A stretch of 44,360 bases of DNA from a virus. Numbering within the stretch: position 1 is the stretch's first letter; each line of letters opens with the position of its first letter. The stretch lies in the UHGV virus genome UHGV-0173177; one strand, given 5' to 3'. Below the pieces are notes generated by a model. The model was given only the letters and a program-made list of their open reading frames with translations, had not been told where the DNA came from and made no database searches. The position numbers and the translations under genes are program-made. Below are positions 3,191 through 43,471 of the stretch, one piece after another.

Positions 3191-3214
3191 AAGGCCCCTT
3201 TCGGGGCCTTTTTC
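3191..3214 (+). terminator. intrinsic terminator, probably bidirectional, between convergent genes
   Basis: AAGGCCCC-TTTC-GGGGCCTT stem-loop followed by a T-run; sits between the + strand tail-tube gene and the - strand ORF ending at 3219. Confidence 0.7.
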
Positions 3215-5352: not shown

Positions 5353-5380
5353 AATTATTTCCTCGGTAAGTTACAAGTGA

Positions 5381-28137: not shown

Positions 28138-28371
28138 TTATTCCAGGTCTTCTAAAGTAGCGGTCATTCCGCGAACTTCAGCAACGGCGCTATATTTCCC
28201 GCCAACATTTTTCACGACACCAGATTTAACCAGCACCTTCAACGACCCTTCAATAATGGCTGAACTATAGTACTTAAAATAACTACGGCGCAAGTCAATA
28301 ACGCTACACGACCCTTTTTTACGTGTTAACGAAACGACTGCTGTAAATACGCGTGACTGAAACTCGGTCAT
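28138..28371 (-). CDS. hypothetical protein (77 aa)
   Basis: ORF with ATGA coupling to the upstream HTH gene. Confidence 0.4.
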   Translation of the reverse strand: MTEFQSRVFTAVVSLTRKKGSCSVIDLRRSYFKYYSSAIIEGSLKVLVKSGVVKNVGGKYSAVAEVRGMTATLEDLE

Positions 28372-28538
28372 TTCACGTTCTCCTTAATCCATGCTTCCAC
28401 TTTCTCCGGGTCAAACGTACCTGGCTGACGACGGCCCATAATGCGGATGCAGCAATCCGGGAACTTCCCGCTCTTTAACCAGTTATTCAGCGTGCGACGG
28501 GTAACCCCGATACGCTCAGCTACCTCATTCTGTGTCAT
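28368..28538 (-). CDS. small helix-turn-helix DNA-binding protein (AlpA/excisionase-like)
   Basis: MTQNEVAERIGVTRRTLNNWLKSGKFP is an AlpA-type HTH; start trimmed to ATG 28538 with GAGGG RBS (track start 28571 is a TTG). Confidence 0.55.
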   Translation of the reverse strand: MTQNEVAERIGVTRRTLNNWLKSGKFPDCCIRIMGRRQPGTFDPEKVEAWIKENVK

Positions 28539-28570
28539 TCTCAAACCCTCATTATTAGTTAACGAAACCA

Positions 28571-28599
28571 AGTATACATTGCGAATAATGGGAAATCAA
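28571..28599 (-). promoter_or_regulatory. sigma70-like promoter (TTGATT-17-TATACT) for the leftward HTH/primase operon
   Basis: - strand reads TTGATT tcccattattcgcaatg TATACT, about 35 nt upstream of ATG 28538. Confidence 0.5.
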
Positions 28600-28978
28600 A
28601 CATAATCGCACCTATTGACATTATGAAAATCTTCGTTTAAGGTGCTTCTATATCTTAGTTACTTTGATTCCTGTTCACCTTGTAAAACCGCTTAAAACGC
28701 AGCTGCGCGCAGCGCAAGCAAAGTGTTAAGCGAAAGTTTACTGAACACGAGAATTATCGTAACTTTCCTTCCTAAGTATCTCCGGTTGCCCTGGGCAAGC
28801 TCTATTCACATCGGCAGCATATCTCTTAAGTATCTGATTTTCTTAATGTGCCGTAGATTCGCAACCGTAAAAATGTAACGATTATTGGGCAGGCTTAGGG
28901 CCTGCCCTTTAGTTACCAAGTAATAAGAATAAAGGCACAACCTTCCCAGAAGAATCACAACGGCAACGTAACTATCTC

Positions 28979-29007
28979 TTGCACGCCCCAACATAATAGG
29001 ATACTAT
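28979..29007 (+). promoter_or_regulatory. sigma70-like promoter (class 2: TTGCAC-17-TACTAT) with AATAGGATACTATT palindrome over the -10
   Basis: TTGCAC gccccaacataatagga TACTAT tcactt, followed by leader ACGAGAcagAGGAG and ATG 29042. Confidence 0.55.
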
Positions 29008-29041
29008 TCACTTATCGAAACGAGACAGAGGAGTGAGGGTT

Positions 29042-34979: not shown

Positions 34980-35210
34980 ATGTTTCACGAACTAAAGATA
35001 TTACCTGAGCATTTTGAACCTGTTATGGTAGGAATCAAGCTGGCGGAACTGCGATTAAACGACCGCGATTTCAAGGAAGACGACACTCTGTGCCTGCGAG
35101 AATACGAAAACGGTGAATACACAGGCCGTATCGTTTACCGCCGCGTTATTCATGTTGCGGACGTAGGTGCTTACCTGCCTGGATACGTGCTATTAAGTAT
35201 GGAGGATTGA
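34980..35210 (+). CDS. ASCH-like (DUF3850-type) small protein
   Basis: MFHELKILPEHFEPVMVGIKLAELRLNDRDFKEDDTLCLREYENGEYTGR… matches the recalled DUF3850 pattern. Confidence 0.45.
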   Translation: MFHELKILPEHFEPVMVGIKLAELRLNDRDFKEDDTLCLREYENGEYTGRIVYRRVIHVADVGAYLPGYVLLSMED

Positions 35211-39218: not shown

Positions 39219-40295
39219 ATGCTATTAACTTTAGCGTCACAGGGTTTATCTATGAGCTTACTTACATCCCTAATCAGCCACCAGATATGGCTGCAACGCA
39301 CCGCATCCGGTGAAGTGAAAGACCTCGCACCGTTCCTTCAGGAGATGCGGGACGAAATCAAACGGCAGGTGCTGTTATTCGGCGACGACGGGCGAAGCAC
39401 CGCGCGACTGAATAAACTGTTACGCGACCTTGAAGAAGCACTTACCGCGCTTACCGGTGACTGGCAAACGAAGCTGACAGAAGACCTTAAGGAGCTGGCC
39501 GCGTATGAGGCTGAGTGGAACGTAAAGACACTGGCAACCAACGTTAACGCGGAATTTGTTACGCCTACCGCCGAACAAGTGTGGGCCGCTGCTGAGTTTC
39601 AACCGCTCTCACTGAGCGACAAGCCAGTTGATTTCGTGAAGCTGATGGAAGGCTGGGGTGAAACGGAAGTATCGCGCCTTGTAACCGGCGTTAAGATGGG
39701 CTTTGTACAAGGTCAAACCACACGGCAGATTGTTAAGAATGTTGTAGGTGCTGGTGGGCTGGCGGACATCTCTGAACGCAACGCGGCTACGGTAATCCGC
39801 ACCGCGCTTTCCCATGTATCAAACGAAGCCCGTAACGAGACGTACCGTCAGAACGACGACATCATCGAGAAATACGAGTGGGTGTCAACGCTGGACAGCC
39901 GTACCAGTACGATTTGCAGAGCCAGAGACGGAATGACATGGGAAATTGGTAAAGGGCCGATGCCCCCCGCCCATCCGAACTGTCGGTCGTGCACGGCGCC
40001 AGTAATCAGTTCCGAGTTCGACTTCCTAGATAAAGGTGCAAAACGCGCGGCTAAGGGTGCGGACGGCGGTATGCAGGTAAGCGCAGACACCACCTATTAC
40101 GAGTTCCTGAAACAGCAACCGGCATGGTTCGTGGATGAAGCACTCGGCCCGGTGCGGGGTAAGATTTTCCGCAACAGCGGTATATCGCCGGAAGAGTTTC
40201 GCGTAATATCTGTAGATGGTTTCGGGAATCCGCTGACGCTTAAGCAGATGGCGGAACTCGATAAACGTGTTGCTGATTATCTGAAAGGGGAATAA
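39219..40295 (+). CDS. head morphogenesis protein (SPP1 gp7 / Mu F-like)
   Basis: C-terminal region …TLDSRTSTICRARDGMTWEIGKGPMPPAHPNCRSCTAP matches the Mu F / SPP1 gp7 family signature; start uncertain (39219 or 39252). Confidence 0.6.
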   Translation: MLLTLASQGLSMSLLTSLISHQIWLQRTASGEVKDLAPFLQEMRDEIKRQVLLFGDDGRSTARLNKLLRDLEEALTALTGDWQTKLTEDLKELAAYEAEWNVKTLATNVNAEFVTPTAEQVWAAAEFQPLSLSDKPVDFVKLMEGWGETEVSRLVTGVKMGFVQGQTTRQIVKNVVGAGGLADISERNAATVIRTALSHVSNEARNETYRQNDDIIEKYEWVSTLDSRTSTICRARDGMTWEIGKGPMPPAHPNCRSCTAPVISSEFDFLDKGAKRAAKGADGGMQVSADTTYYEFLKQQPAWFVDEALGPVRGKIFRNSGISPEEFRVISVDGFGNPLTLKQMAELDKRVADYLKGE

Positions 40296-40756
40296 TGATG
40301 GGCTTTTTCAAAGTAACTGATGTGCTGTCACGTCGTGTAGTCCAGTACGCCCGCGTGTCTGGCTCTGGCGAGAACGTGGTATTTATCGAAGATGAAAGTG
40401 TACTGGGTACACCAGTAGACGATATGCCGTTTGCGGATAAAACCGGTATTGCGTTGCCAGCCGCGGGTATGCTTTATGAAATTCCGTATCTGGCTGACGC
40501 AGGCGACGTGTACTTCTCGGCGCAACCGCAGGACGCTGAACTGGCGGACGGCAGCGCAACTATCACTGTCGAAGTTAAGGCGGGCAAAGCGCCGTATGCT
40601 CTTACCTGGTACAAAGACGGTAAGGAAGTTGTAAACGCACCTGAAGAGGCCTTGTCTCTGACGGTTAACGCAGCAGGTGAATACTTCGTTAAAGTCACCG
40701 ATGCCGGTGGCGTAGAGGCCGTCAGTAAAGCGGCGAAGGTAACTAAGCCAGAATGA
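40295..40756 (+). CDS. Ig-like domain protein (possible capsid decoration/accessory protein)
   Basis: C-terminal ~80 aa has the Ig pattern …YALTWYKDGKEV…AGEYFVKVTDAGG…; paralogous to the domain in 43493-43831. Confidence 0.45.
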   Translation: MMGFFKVTDVLSRRVVQYARVSGSGENVVFIEDESVLGTPVDDMPFADKTGIALPAAGMLYEIPYLADAGDVYFSAQPQDAELADGSATITVEVKAGKAPYALTWYKDGKEVVNAPEEALSLTVNAAGEYFVKVTDAGGVEAVSKAAKVTKPE

Positions 40757-40760
40757 TAAA

Positions 40761-40783
40761 AAGCCCCGTTAAGGGGCTTTTTA
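40761..40783 (+). terminator. intrinsic terminator
   Basis: AAGCCCC-gtta-AGGGGCTT followed by TTTT. Confidence 0.7.
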
Positions 40784-40832
40784 GTGCCTGTGATTATTCC
40801 AGTTATTCCACTAAATTGTAAATGTTGGAATA

Positions 40833-40848
40833 AACTATTCGAATAGTT
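40833..40848. promoter_or_regulatory. perfect 16-bp palindrome AACTATTCGAATAGTT, overlapping a promoter-like -35 (TTGACT, 40847-40852)
   Basis: Read directly; half-sites CTATT/AATAG are those of the promoter-associated palindrome family, in everted arrangement. Confidence 0.5.
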
Positions 40849-41055
40849 GACTTTTCACTGAAAATATGATAAGCTCCACCTGAGCTTGTGAAGTATGAAC
40901 AAGCGACCGCGGCGCGGGCAGGTAACGGAGCGGGACGTAAGTCCTGAGTGTAGTTACGCTGACGCGTTCGGAAGGGCCATACTCTATTGCTTGTGTAAAA
41001 AGTAACTGGTTTACTGAGATTACGCCGTTTCTATGTTTAAATGATAAGGACTAGC

Positions 41056-41080
41056 GCCCCGCTTTATGGCGGGGCTTTAC
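41056..41080 (+). terminator. candidate intrinsic terminator closing the 40.8-41.1 kb non-coding unit
   Basis: GCCCCGC-tttatg-GCGGGGC followed by TTTACTTAT (interrupted T-run). Confidence 0.4.
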
Positions 41081-41099
41081 TTATCGAGAAAGGAGAAAC

Positions 41100-41486
41100 A
41101 TGAATCTTAAAGCAACTGTCGTAGCGGGAGCATGTTTCATCATCCTGGCTTACGCACACGGCATCTACCAGTATCGCAGCGGCTGGAACGAAGGCCGGGC
41201 GAATCTCGTTTCGCAGCAACAGCATGAAGCACAAGCTGAGTTAGCGAAGAAAACACAACGGCAGCAGCAGGATGAATCAAAGGCCGCCGCCGCCGACAAC
41301 GAAGGCAAGACGAAATCAGAGGTCATTACCCGTGAAGTCGTTAAGTACATTAAAACGCCTGGTCGCAGCGTGTGCACTTTCGATGATGCTCGCGTCCTGC
41401 TCAAGTCCCGAGCCGTCGCAAACGCCAATTCCATACCCGGATACGACAATGATGCAGCCGCCGTGCAAACTGGCCGCACCAAGTAG
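41100..41486 (+). CDS. Rz: Rz-like inner-membrane spanin
   Basis: 128 aa; N-terminal transmembrane helix, Gln/Ala/Lys-rich coiled-coil middle, periplasmic Cys; AAGGAG RBS; contains a +1-frame lipoprotein ORF. Confidence 0.55.
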   Translation: MNLKATVVAGACFIILAYAHGIYQYRSGWNEGRANLVSQQQHEAQAELAKKTQRQQQDESKAAAADNEGKTKSEVITREVVKYIKTPGRSVCTFDDARVLLKSRAVANANSIPGYDNDAAAVQTGRTK

Positions 41487-41595
41487 CGATGCCGACGAGG
41501 ATTTGGCTATCGACGTCCAGAACGCCGAATGTGTACGGCAACTGAGGCTGAAAGTGTTCATGTTGCAGGATTACGTGAGGAATATTCTGGAATAG
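41332..41595 (+). CDS. Rz1: Rz1-like outer-membrane lipoprotein spanin, overlapping Rz in the +1 frame
   Basis: GTG 41332 with GAGG upstream; signal peptide ending in lipobox LASC; Pro-rich mature region CSSPEPSQTPIPYPD…. Confidence 0.5.
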   Translation: MKSLSTLKRLVAACALSMMLASCSSPEPSQTPIPYPDTTMMQPPCKLAAPSSDADEDLAIDVQNAECVRQLRLKVFMLQDYVRNILE

Positions 41596-41677
41596 TTGCC
41601 TTGCATGTTGGAATAATTTATTCTTGACATGTAAATCCGGGCGGCCCGGGTTCCAACGTCCAGGGGACATACTGACT

Positions 41678-42379
41678 ATGAATCGTTTTTTACGTTATCC
41701 GTTCCAGGAAGAAGCTGGAGCAGAAGATAAAGCTGGTGGCGGTGACGCACCAAAAATGTTCACCGCTGAAGAAGTTCAGGCGCTGATTGAGAAAGAAGTT
41801 GCCGGGCTTAAGGCAAATCAGGAAGCGTTGCTGGCGGAGAAGAAAGAAGCCGCTCGCAAAGCAAAAGAGGCCGAAGAACAACGGCAGCGCGCGCACCAGG
41901 AGGCGTTAAAGGCTGCTGGTAAGATGGACGAGTTCGAAAAAACGATTCGTAGCCAGTATGACCCGGTGTTAGCCGAGAAAGATGGTCGCATCTCCAAAAT
42001 GGCGGAGCGCATCCTCGGCAGCGAACGTAAAGCGGTGTTAGGCTCTTTTGCGGGTGACTTTATTACCCCGGAAGCAGCGGACATTCTTGCACCGTTCGTC
42101 AAGACTGAGTTCGAAGGTGATGATGTGGTTACTAAGTTTGTCGGCCCAGACGGCAACGTAATCACGACTGACCCGGAACAGTTCCGCAAATACCTGCGCG
42201 AACACAAAGCGTTTTCGCATTTGATTAAAGCAAATGCAGCTTCCGGCGGCGGGGCTTCCGGTAGCAAAGGCGGCGGGGCCGCACCAGCGTTTAAAGACAT
42301 GAGTGAAGCAGAGCGTTTAGCCCTGTATAAATCGAACCCTGCCGAATTTGAACGGCAACTTAAAGCCCTGAGGAAATAA
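41678..42379 (+). CDS. scaffolding protein (putative)
   Basis: ~230 aa, Ala/Glu/Lys-rich and helical, immediately upstream of the major capsid gene; track TTG start 41624 trimmed to ATG 41678. Confidence 0.5.
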   Translation: MNRFLRYPFQEEAGAEDKAGGGDAPKMFTAEEVQALIEKEVAGLKANQEALLAEKKEAARKAKEAEEQRQRAHQEALKAAGKMDEFEKTIRSQYDPVLAEKDGRISKMAERILGSERKAVLGSFAGDFITPEAADILAPFVKTEFEGDDVVTKFVGPDGNVITTDPEQFRKYLREHKAFSHLIKANAASGGGASGSKGGGAAPAFKDMSEAERLALYKSNPAEFERQLKALRK

Positions 42380-43446: not shown

Positions 43447-43471
43447 GAGAGGGACTTCGGTCCCTCTTTTC
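43447..43471 (+). terminator. intrinsic terminator after the major capsid gene
   Basis: GAGAGGGAC-ttcg-GTCCCTC followed by TTTT. Confidence 0.7.

Follow-up and report, generated by a model that had tools for sequence, protein, structure and literature searches.

A conserved structured RNA between the decoration and i-spanin genes of Guernseyvirinae phages

What does a 316-bp non-coding interval do in the middle of the head operon of a phage? The question is raised by positions 40784–41099 of the virus genome UHGV-0173177, a stretch of 44,360 nucleotides hereafter called the window. The window is an almost complete Kagunavirus (Guernseyvirinae) genome, with 100% identity over the query to Kagunavirus 536P11 and 99.8% identity to Escherichia phage K1ind3. 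The interval is bounded by an Ig-like/Hoc-like decoration gene (40295–40756) and the i-spanin gene Rz (41100–41486), in which Rz1 is embedded; scaffold and major capsid genes lie downstream of Rz/Rz1. A preliminary description, made from the letters of the window, suggested that the interval is either an independent small transcription unit, encoding a small RNA (sRNA) or a micro-protein, or a structured cis element. Taken singly, the promoter, repeats, palindrome, open reading frame (ORF) and hairpins are within chance expectation, and it is the conservation in relatives that sets the interval apart. This conservation delineates a previously undescribed RNA family with a defined fold. The micro-protein is the part of the earlier proposal that has to be abandoned, whereas the promoter, the hairpin and the structured RNA are all conserved.

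Conservation and fold of the RNA

Copies of the interval were found in 281 phage records, each of them from Guernseyvirinae or a mislabelled relative. About 180 of the 281 records, including some Salmonella Jerseyviruses, are 95–100% identical to it. Compared with Salmonella phage SP-101, the core of the RNA (40882–40992) is 98.2% identical and its 3′ part 96.8% identical, versus 73–86% for the neighbouring genes. Both RNA segments are 100% identical in phage Shashou, versus 84–95% for the genes, and no other stretch of the region is as conserved as the RNA part. In most Jerseyviruses, this slot is occupied by a version with an identity of only about 57%. Pattern scans of IMG/VR, of one genome per species and of metagenomes yielded about 90 copies, which fall into four sequence types. 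Type A, to which the window belongs, and type C of Jerseyvirus occupy the late slot described above. Type B is represented by the second copy that some Kagunaviruses have in their early region, and type D occupies the early slot and, once, the late slot.

A common fold for all four types was obtained with a covariance model, RNAalifold and a hand alignment. The structured core of about 110 nt (40882–40992, plus strand) begins with a 5′-terminal hairpin, P0 (40884–40889/40899–40904), which starts no more than 2–3 nt from the predicted 5′ end in all types. A long irregular helix follows. It consists of P1 (40907–40909/40969–40971; CCG/CGG), a bulged C (40910), P1b (40911–40915/40964–40968; GGNGC/GCNUU with two tandem G·U pairs), P3 (40919–40921/40959–40961), a bulge and P4 (40922–40926/40953–40957). 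Beyond P4, an internal loop (GGAGC, 40927–40931; GAGUGUA, 40946–40952) leads to the P5 hairpin (40932–40945). On the 3′ side, the helix is followed by the tail AAGGGCC (40972–40978), a hypervariable segment of 5 nt (40979–40983) and CUAUUG (40984–40989). The helices are wholly different between the types, and the fixed parts are the helix base, the tail and the internal loop. The helix base (CCG-C-GGNGC/GCNUU-CGG) and the 3′ tail AAGGGCC are invariant; the cross-type consensus reads GNARC/AGYGUA for the internal loop and AAGGG(C/U)C, five hypervariable bases and CUAUUG for the segment after the helix. The AU-rich 3′ part (40993–41055), which is less structured and has a small hairpin AGUAA/UUACU at 41001–41015, is 97–100% identical among type-A phages and shares just blocks with types B and C.

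Covariation was evaluated on three alignments. RNAalifold recovered the outer helix from a plain MAFFT alignment that had not been fitted to any model, in which the N pair of P1b occurs as C-G, U-A or A-U. In the model-fitted alignment, which is biased towards structure, 95.5% of the cells are paired, and 13 of 29 pairs show compensatory changes on both sides; when the partner was slid by 1–3 columns as a control, 31–44% of the cells were paired and 0–3 pairs changed on both sides. In the hand alignment, 261 of 264 cells are paired, with compensatory changes in P0, P1b, P3, P4 and P5. The covariation is drawn from about four lineages, and the independent events are therefore few, though spread across many pairs. 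The covariance model (R1) matches the window exactly once, with 132 bits, and no second copy was found in the window. These alignments indicate that the structured RNA is genuine and, because of the G·U pairs in its helices, that it is specific to the plus strand. The preliminary description had counted a lack of conservation of the ORF or the structure in related genomes among the observations that would refute its proposal, and in the relatives the structure is conserved with covariation.

Most of the further pairings and motifs considered were rejected. Pairing of the AAGGGCC tail with the 3′ arm of P5 and pairing of the hypervariable linker with the P0 loop (AGUAUG/CAUACU) are both possible in type A only and are lost in the other types. 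The register of an RfaH ops element (GGCGGTAG) and of boxA, both judged by eye, is inconsistent across types. A closing helix AAGCGA/UUGCUU, which would compete with P0, is still a candidate, being good in types A and C and weak in types B and D. Among the 4227 models of Rfam, none reached its gathering score in the window, and none matched 40882–40992 even at E-values up to 10. The nearest models matched generic terminator hairpins resembling parts of enterobacterial sRNA models, the best with an E-value of 0.027 and 24 bits versus a gathering score of 70. A search for tRNA and tmRNA found none in the window.

The family appears to be limited to Guernseyvirinae, as judged from the sequence collections scanned. 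No copy was found in 5,426 complete E. coli genomes, and 185,579 species genomes gave five pattern matches, of which four are attributable to chance and one to a contaminant scaffold. The latter (NZ_JACVEL010000048.1, 738 bp), from a Taishania pollutisoli assembly, carries a Jerseyvirus-type element, probably because phage DNA contaminated the assembly. One E. coli ‘plasmid’ of 44 kb in PLSDB (CP088689.1) is the genome of a Kagunavirus in which the element occurs twice. A looser pattern applied to IMG/VR gave mostly chance matches in GC-rich sequence. About 25 soil-metagenome loci were rejected as members, because their match appears to be a chance one within a conserved coding gene and the model scores only 15–24 bits. 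In these loci, from soil or peat, a near-identical GC-rich stretch fits the pattern CCGCGGCGCGG, 78 nt, GCGTTCGGAAGGG; it seems to represent the 3′ end of that coding gene, on the other strand, and the two invariant motifs alone are unspecific.

The 36-codon ORF noted in the preliminary description is present at 40895–41005 (plus strand), with its start codon in the P0 loop, and is annotated as a hypothetical protein in some records. Neither its frame nor its start is conserved, and we do not regard it as a gene. Type C lacks the P0 loop and with it the ATG, type B has no such ATG or is stopped after 17 codons, and neither type B nor type D keeps the frame intact. Among close relatives of type A, indels of 1 nt lead to a stop after 9 or 17 codons. 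A much shorter mini-ORF could begin at the UUG within the invariant CUAUUG (40984–40998 region), which lies at a fixed distance of 10 nt after a GGAAGGG resembling a Shine-Dalgarno (SD) sequence. Its length is 1–10 codons in every type (UUG-UAA in type D), CUG replaces UUG in some type-C phages, and the peptide is not conserved. It could be a start-stop site or a leader-peptide site, or nothing at all.

Promoter, downstream hairpin and the second genomic slot

The RNA is preceded by a predicted sigma-70 promoter (40847–40875, plus strand), which consists of TTGACT (40847–40852), a 17-nt spacer, an extended TG (40867–40868) and TAAGCT (40870–40875). The TTGACT and the extended −10-like element 17 bp downstream had been pointed out in the preliminary description, and both are conserved in relatives. 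A consensus promoter scan skips the site because TAAGCT matches TATAAT at only three of six positions. The counterpart in Jerseyvirus is TAGACT-17-TGtTACGCT, and the spacer between the −35 and −10 elements is conserved between types A and B. The promoter is conserved together with the RNA in both genomic slots, and the sequence 5′ of the −35 element differs between the slots. We infer that the promoter is active and that transcription starts at approximately 40882. A near-repeat of the −10 hexamer (TGAGCT/GAGCTT, 40881–40887) lies at the predicted transcript start and also forms the 5′ arm of P0. It covaries with the −10 element by type, with TAAGCT and TGAGCT in types A, B and D and TACGCT twice in type C, 3–5 nt apart. 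This is suggestive, though no more, of a sigma-dependent pause element.

Upstream of the promoter, the 8-bp-arm inverted repeat reported earlier is found at 40803–40810 (TTATTCCA) and 40826–40833 (TGGAATAA), and an additional direct copy of TTATTCCA, which had escaped notice, is located at 40794–40801. Together they form a set of three TTATTCC(A) motifs (direct at 40794 and 40803, inverted at 40826–40833), which is conserved into Jerseyvirus. The stretch containing them (query positions 10–70) is the sole part matched in about 100 divergent records. These repeats probably constitute a regulator-binding region. The perfect 16-bp palindrome overlapping the −35 element (40833–40848, AACTATTC|GAATAGTT) is also as described. 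Its sequence occurs once in the window, and simple arithmetic predicts about 0.7 perfect 16-bp palindromes per 44 kb by chance. Because it is kept in type A only and lost in Jerseyvirus type C, it is probably not essential to the family.

Motifs like those at the promoter also occur at 41575–41640 (GGAATATTCTGGAATAG...ATGTTGGAATAATTTATTC-TTGACA), upstream of the scaffold gene, whose true start is the ATG at 41678. A GGAATA triplet and ATGTTGGAATAA precede the TTGACA (41625) within 41575–41630 and resemble the TTATTCC set, with repeats recurring over 41575–41622. The −10 element is poor, and a CCGGGC/GCCCGG hairpin follows. This region may be a co-regulated late promoter, and the TTATTCC and GGAATA sets resemble sites at which one regulator shared by the late promoters could bind.

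The GC hairpin of 7–8 bp downstream of the RNA (41056–41084, plus strand) has the stem GCCCCGC/GCGGGGC at 41056–41075, followed by TTTACTTATC, and is listed as terminator-like by the scan, in agreement with the second hairpin terminator proposed earlier (41056–41080). The stem is kept through compensatory changes in relatives (CCCAGC/GCTGGG, CCCTGC/GCAGGG and CCCGAC/GTCGGG). As read from the sequences, a usable U-tract is found in type A only (UUUACUUAU). The tract is poor in the Jerseyvirus type and in the types of the second copy: the stem is followed by UUAGCGUAU in type C, and a longer stem by ACUGCGUUG in type B. The hairpin may thus be a terminator, an attenuator or an RNA-end hairpin. 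Because types B and C lack a proper U-tract, the RNA would mostly remain as the 5′ leader of the downstream mRNA.

The left boundary of the unit is a bidirectional terminator hairpin (40757–40783; TAAAAAGCCCC/GGGGCTTTTTA) with 11-nt arms that are 100% complementary and a T-run on both sides, which ends the upstream head-morphogenesis and Ig-like decoration genes. A terminator is annotated at the homologous site in phage Shashou. On the right, the GC hairpin is separated by 25 nt from the start of Rz, the first downstream gene (AAGGAG SD sequence and ATG at 41090–41102, plus strand), and this gap is too short for a second promoter. Because of the strong terminator directly upstream and the short gap, Rz/Rz1 would depend on the promoter at 40847–40875. 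In several relatives, among them L012 (2651–2995, minus strand), RP180, SCS44 and 22664BS2, 270–570 bp are inserted between the terminator of the Hoc-like gene and the TTATTCC repeats. The insert in L012 is a gene for a 114-residue lipoprotein-like protein (lipobox LSGC) on the opposite strand. A moron insertion site thus lies directly at the left edge of the unit.

Some Kagunaviruses carry a second copy, which extends from the −35 hexamer through CUAUUG and beyond and heads the early rightward operon. The late-slot and early-slot copies are alike from the −35 element onward (TTGACTTTTCACTGAAAATATGATAAGCT versus TTGACTTTTACTTAAAAATATGCTAAGCT) and unrelated upstream; therefore, the duplicated unit consists of the promoter and the RNA. 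Cores have been exchanged between the slots, as type D occurs in both. The second copy adjoins primase and helicase genes at the cumulative GC-skew minimum. This minimum, at 28–29 kb, corresponds to the switch in the direction of transcription, and none is found at 40.9 kb.

In the window, the corresponding region (28600–28950, plus strand) holds another conserved non-coding unit at the head of the early rightward operon. It comprises a promoter (TTGACA-17-TAAGGT, 28616–28644), about 250 nt without a conserved ORF, and a terminator (GGGCAGGC..GCCTGCCC-TTT, 28887–28907). It occurs in 370 phage records, with about 77% identity in Jerseyvirus, and in some Kagunaviruses its slot is occupied by a type B or D copy of the RNA described here. 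Between this unit and the 3′ half of the RNA there is weak local similarity (GGGC-GAGCTATATT, AGATTCGC..CCGTA), about 4 standard deviations above shuffled sequences. Divergent from the early-slot unit are 28368–28571 and 28138–28371 (both minus strand), which encode a 67-residue HTH_17/excisionase-type DNA-binding protein; the 67-residue protein adjoins the early slot in all relatives examined, whichever RNA is present.

The same genome contains about eight near-identical promoter-like sites of the form TTGCRC-17-TACTAT, with AATAG(G/T)NNNCTATT across the spacer and −10 element. One is located at 28980–29012, and the other motifs start at 5380, 23220, 25518, 25531, 25575, 30219 and 30542. In Kagunavirus fBC-Eco01, PHIRE predicted seven ‘phage promoters’ (tgAATAGTa-ccTATTat-T) (PMC9825357), to which this family of sites corresponds. 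The sites are probably an operator-bearing class of early or middle promoters.

Possible roles of the RNA

Our tentative preference, with a probability of roughly 40%, is that the interval is a leader acting in cis, which would determine how much transcription continues into Rz/Rz1 and the scaffold and capsid genes. According to this model, host sigma-70 RNA polymerase would initiate near 40882 at the conserved extended −10 promoter, with the timing probably set by a phage protein on the TTATTCC repeats. The first 110 nt or so of the transcript would fold into the 5′-terminal hairpin and the single long irregular helix, and after about 65 nt more, the polymerase would reach the GC hairpin 5′ of Rz. 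The folded RNA would act in cis on the transcribing complex or the transcript, so that a set fraction passes this hairpin and the terminators further on, which follow the capsid and tail tube genes. The remaining transcripts would end as an RNA of about 200 nt. The RNA could itself be the modifier or serve as a docking site for an unrecognised factor. The pause at the start of the transcript and any effect on termination are likewise predicted.

The arrangement of the genome is compatible with such a role. Rightward transcription runs through the early operon, the holin and endolysin, terminase, portal, head and tail genes, and several annotated terminators are crossed. A plus-strand terminator is located further downstream at 43447–43468, and the hairpin at 3191–3210, listed by the scan on the minus strand only, is read as bidirectional by its match to Shashou’s bidirectional terminator after the tail tube gene. 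The movement of the promoter and RNA as one module between slots speaks for a leader acting in cis. At the invariant positions, phages of E. coli and Salmonella have the same residues despite 15–30% protein divergence, which is compatible with a target conserved in the hosts, for example RNA polymerase. Among 30 small proteins, most of unknown function, no antiterminator resembling Q, N or AlpA was recognised when all 30 were compared with PHROGs and the first 10 with Pfam; the annotation of Shashou lists none either. The sole recognisable RNA-binding candidate in the genome is a 76-residue DUF3850/ASCH (PUA-like) protein (34980–35210, plus strand), which is encoded in the operon upstream of terminase and belongs to a PHROG named ‘RNA-binding protein’; nothing links it to the RNA.

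Several observations weigh against the cis-acting leader. In the early slot, an extra promoter (TTGCAC-17-TACTAT) lies between the RNA hairpin and the first gene, and a cis role is therefore not required there. A separate promoter at 41625 may serve the scaffold gene. The −10 repeat amounts to one covarying position only, and its sequence doubles as the 5′ arm of P0. Type-A members are 98–100% identical over about 175 nt, which is beyond the needs of the fold alone. Phages without antitermination commonly have a terminator behind the capsid gene. A similarity to the put antiterminator RNAs of phage HK022 is absent in both sequence and model, and no transcript map of any Guernseyvirinae phage was found in the literature.

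The main rival, which we consider rather unlikely, is a stable trans-acting sRNA of about 200 nt with its own promoter and terminator, which would target host or phage mRNAs or sequester a protein while Rz/Rz1 are fed by incidental leak-through. In its favour is the near-perfect conservation over about 175 nt, and the window’s type does have both a promoter and a terminator-like hairpin, together with 5′-terminal and 3′ hairpins typical of stable RNAs. The early-slot unit precedes a separate promoter and appears self-contained, and the early slot of most relatives holds a different conserved non-coding unit, as if RNA genes were exchangeable. There is also a precedent in Stx phages, where a short pR′ transcript is reportedly processed into the sRNA StxS. 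On the other hand, types B and C, which lack a usable U-tract, would have no defined 3′ end and no Hfq-type tail, and a terminator-defined 3′ end with a U-tail is accordingly not shared by all members. The complete variation of the helices by type, with only the base, tail and loop fixed, fits a recognised shape better than a base-pairing seed, and the promoter is co-conserved with the RNA.

Two other explanations appear improbable. The first is a riboswitch or protein-controlled attenuator, in which a ligand or a phage protein would make the core alternate with a pairing to the terminator’s 5′ arm and thereby choose between termination and read-through. The order of promoter, conserved fold, terminator and SD sequence is that of an attenuator, and P5 (40929–40945) is 82% complementary to the 5′ flank of the terminator (41047–41063), with −23.7 kcal/mol and only 1 of 300 shuffles as good. 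However, this complementarity is absent in types B, C and D (117, 264, 191 and 30 of 300 shuffles as good), so that a mutually exclusive antiterminator pairing is significant in type A only. Types B and C have no real terminator, no riboswitch family was matched at the E-values given above, and the SD sequence is not visibly sequestered. The second, of similarly low probability, is an mRNA stability or processing element, whose hairpins would keep RNase E and exonucleases from attacking the late transcript, or a leader excised from it, and leave transcription unaffected. The position of P0 at the very 5′ end in all types and the maintenance of the GC hairpin by compensatory change, even without a U-tract in two types, are as expected for such an element. 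A simple hairpin would suffice for this purpose, and the invariant helix base, tail and internal loop, the co-conserved promoter and the −10 repeat are left unexplained.

A micro-protein gene is very improbable, and so is an element acting at the level of the DNA, for instance a packaging site or a replication origin primed by transcription: the ORF exists and is annotated, and the second copy lies beside primase and helicase genes at the skew minimum, but the ORF is not conserved, an origin at the interval itself was rejected because the minimum coincides with divergent transcription at 28–29 kb and there is none at 40.9 kb, and the G·U pairs and compensatory changes indicate a one-strand RNA.

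Guernseyvirinae (Kagunavirus and Jerseyvirus) are among the most frequently isolated phages for therapy work on E. coli K1/urinary tract infection and Salmonella, and hundreds of their genomes carry the element, which is either missing from the annotation or wrongly entered as a hypothetical ORF. Should it be a read-through leader acting in cis, it would explain how about 25 kb of late genes are expressed by the host polymerase even though no antiterminator was recognised in searches; it would be just the second known type of antiterminator RNA in phages and a compact promoter-plus-leader part for synthetic biology. A trans-acting RNA would mean an abundant phage RNA with an unknown host target. 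Either way, the family merits an entry in an RNA family database, and the small ORF calls merit removal.

Comparison with known phage systems

The most specific form of the cis-acting proposal is that the RNA is a processive antiterminator independent of proteins and forms a class of its own, unrelated to HK022 put and the second of this kind. We consider this unlikely as it stands; if true, virulent siphoviruses of E. coli and Salmonella would drive host RNA polymerase through late and, in some cases, early rightward terminators by means of a portable promoter-plus-RNA module. Like putL and putR, the RNA at 40882–40992 lies directly downstream of a sigma-70 promoter, on the sense strand of a long operon, with terminators downstream (PMC9378689). 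Both have a two stem-loop layout with bulges and invariant residues as well as a −10-like element in the early transcribed region, which is located at +23 to +28 in putL, and in neither case is a dedicated protein recognised (PMC9378689). Homology was not detected: a blastn-short comparison with the HK022 immunity region gave only chance words of 8–13 nt, and the covariance model found nothing in HK022 22–36 kb. The RNA is longer than put (about 110 nt versus about 70 nt), and it precedes late and lysis genes in virulent Guernseyvirinae, in contrast to the temperate lambdoid background of put. A hallmark of put is the suppression of pausing and termination without a protein factor, by way of the beta′ zinc-binding domain of RNA polymerase.

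The sRNA StxS offers a parallel for the terminated product, in that a short late-promoter transcript that stops at the first terminator could also act in trans. StxS reportedly depends on Hfq and on a canonical terminator, and types B and C of the present family lack such a terminator.

The third comparison is with the cassettes controlled by Q proteins and AlpA. These factors act through a DNA site, with a binding element between −35 and −10, and a protein nozzle, for which a structured leader RNA is unnecessary, whereas the RNA fold is conserved here; the 67-residue HTH_17 protein encoded next to the early slot is of the excisionase type and does not have the Pseudomonas AlpA fold. Loading of Q proteins and AlpA requires the polymerase to pause at a −10-like element, located at −1 to +5 in PalpB (PMC9371919), and the putative −10 repeat at 40881–40887 would occupy the same position as that of PalpB. 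The order of elements in P. aeruginosa PalpB-tB is also similar: a promoter, a −10-like hexamer at approximately −1 to +6, a leader of about 200 nt and a terminator (PMC9371919). Lambda pR′-qut-6S RNA-tR′ is arranged in this way as well. In the window’s type, the promoter is likewise separated from the first regulated gene by an intrinsic terminator, with a weak or absent U-tract in types B and C. Lambda 6S RNA is 194 nt long, compared with about 200 nt for the terminated RNA predicted here. As in these cassettes, the leader is followed by lysis genes, here Rz/Rz1, and then by head genes.

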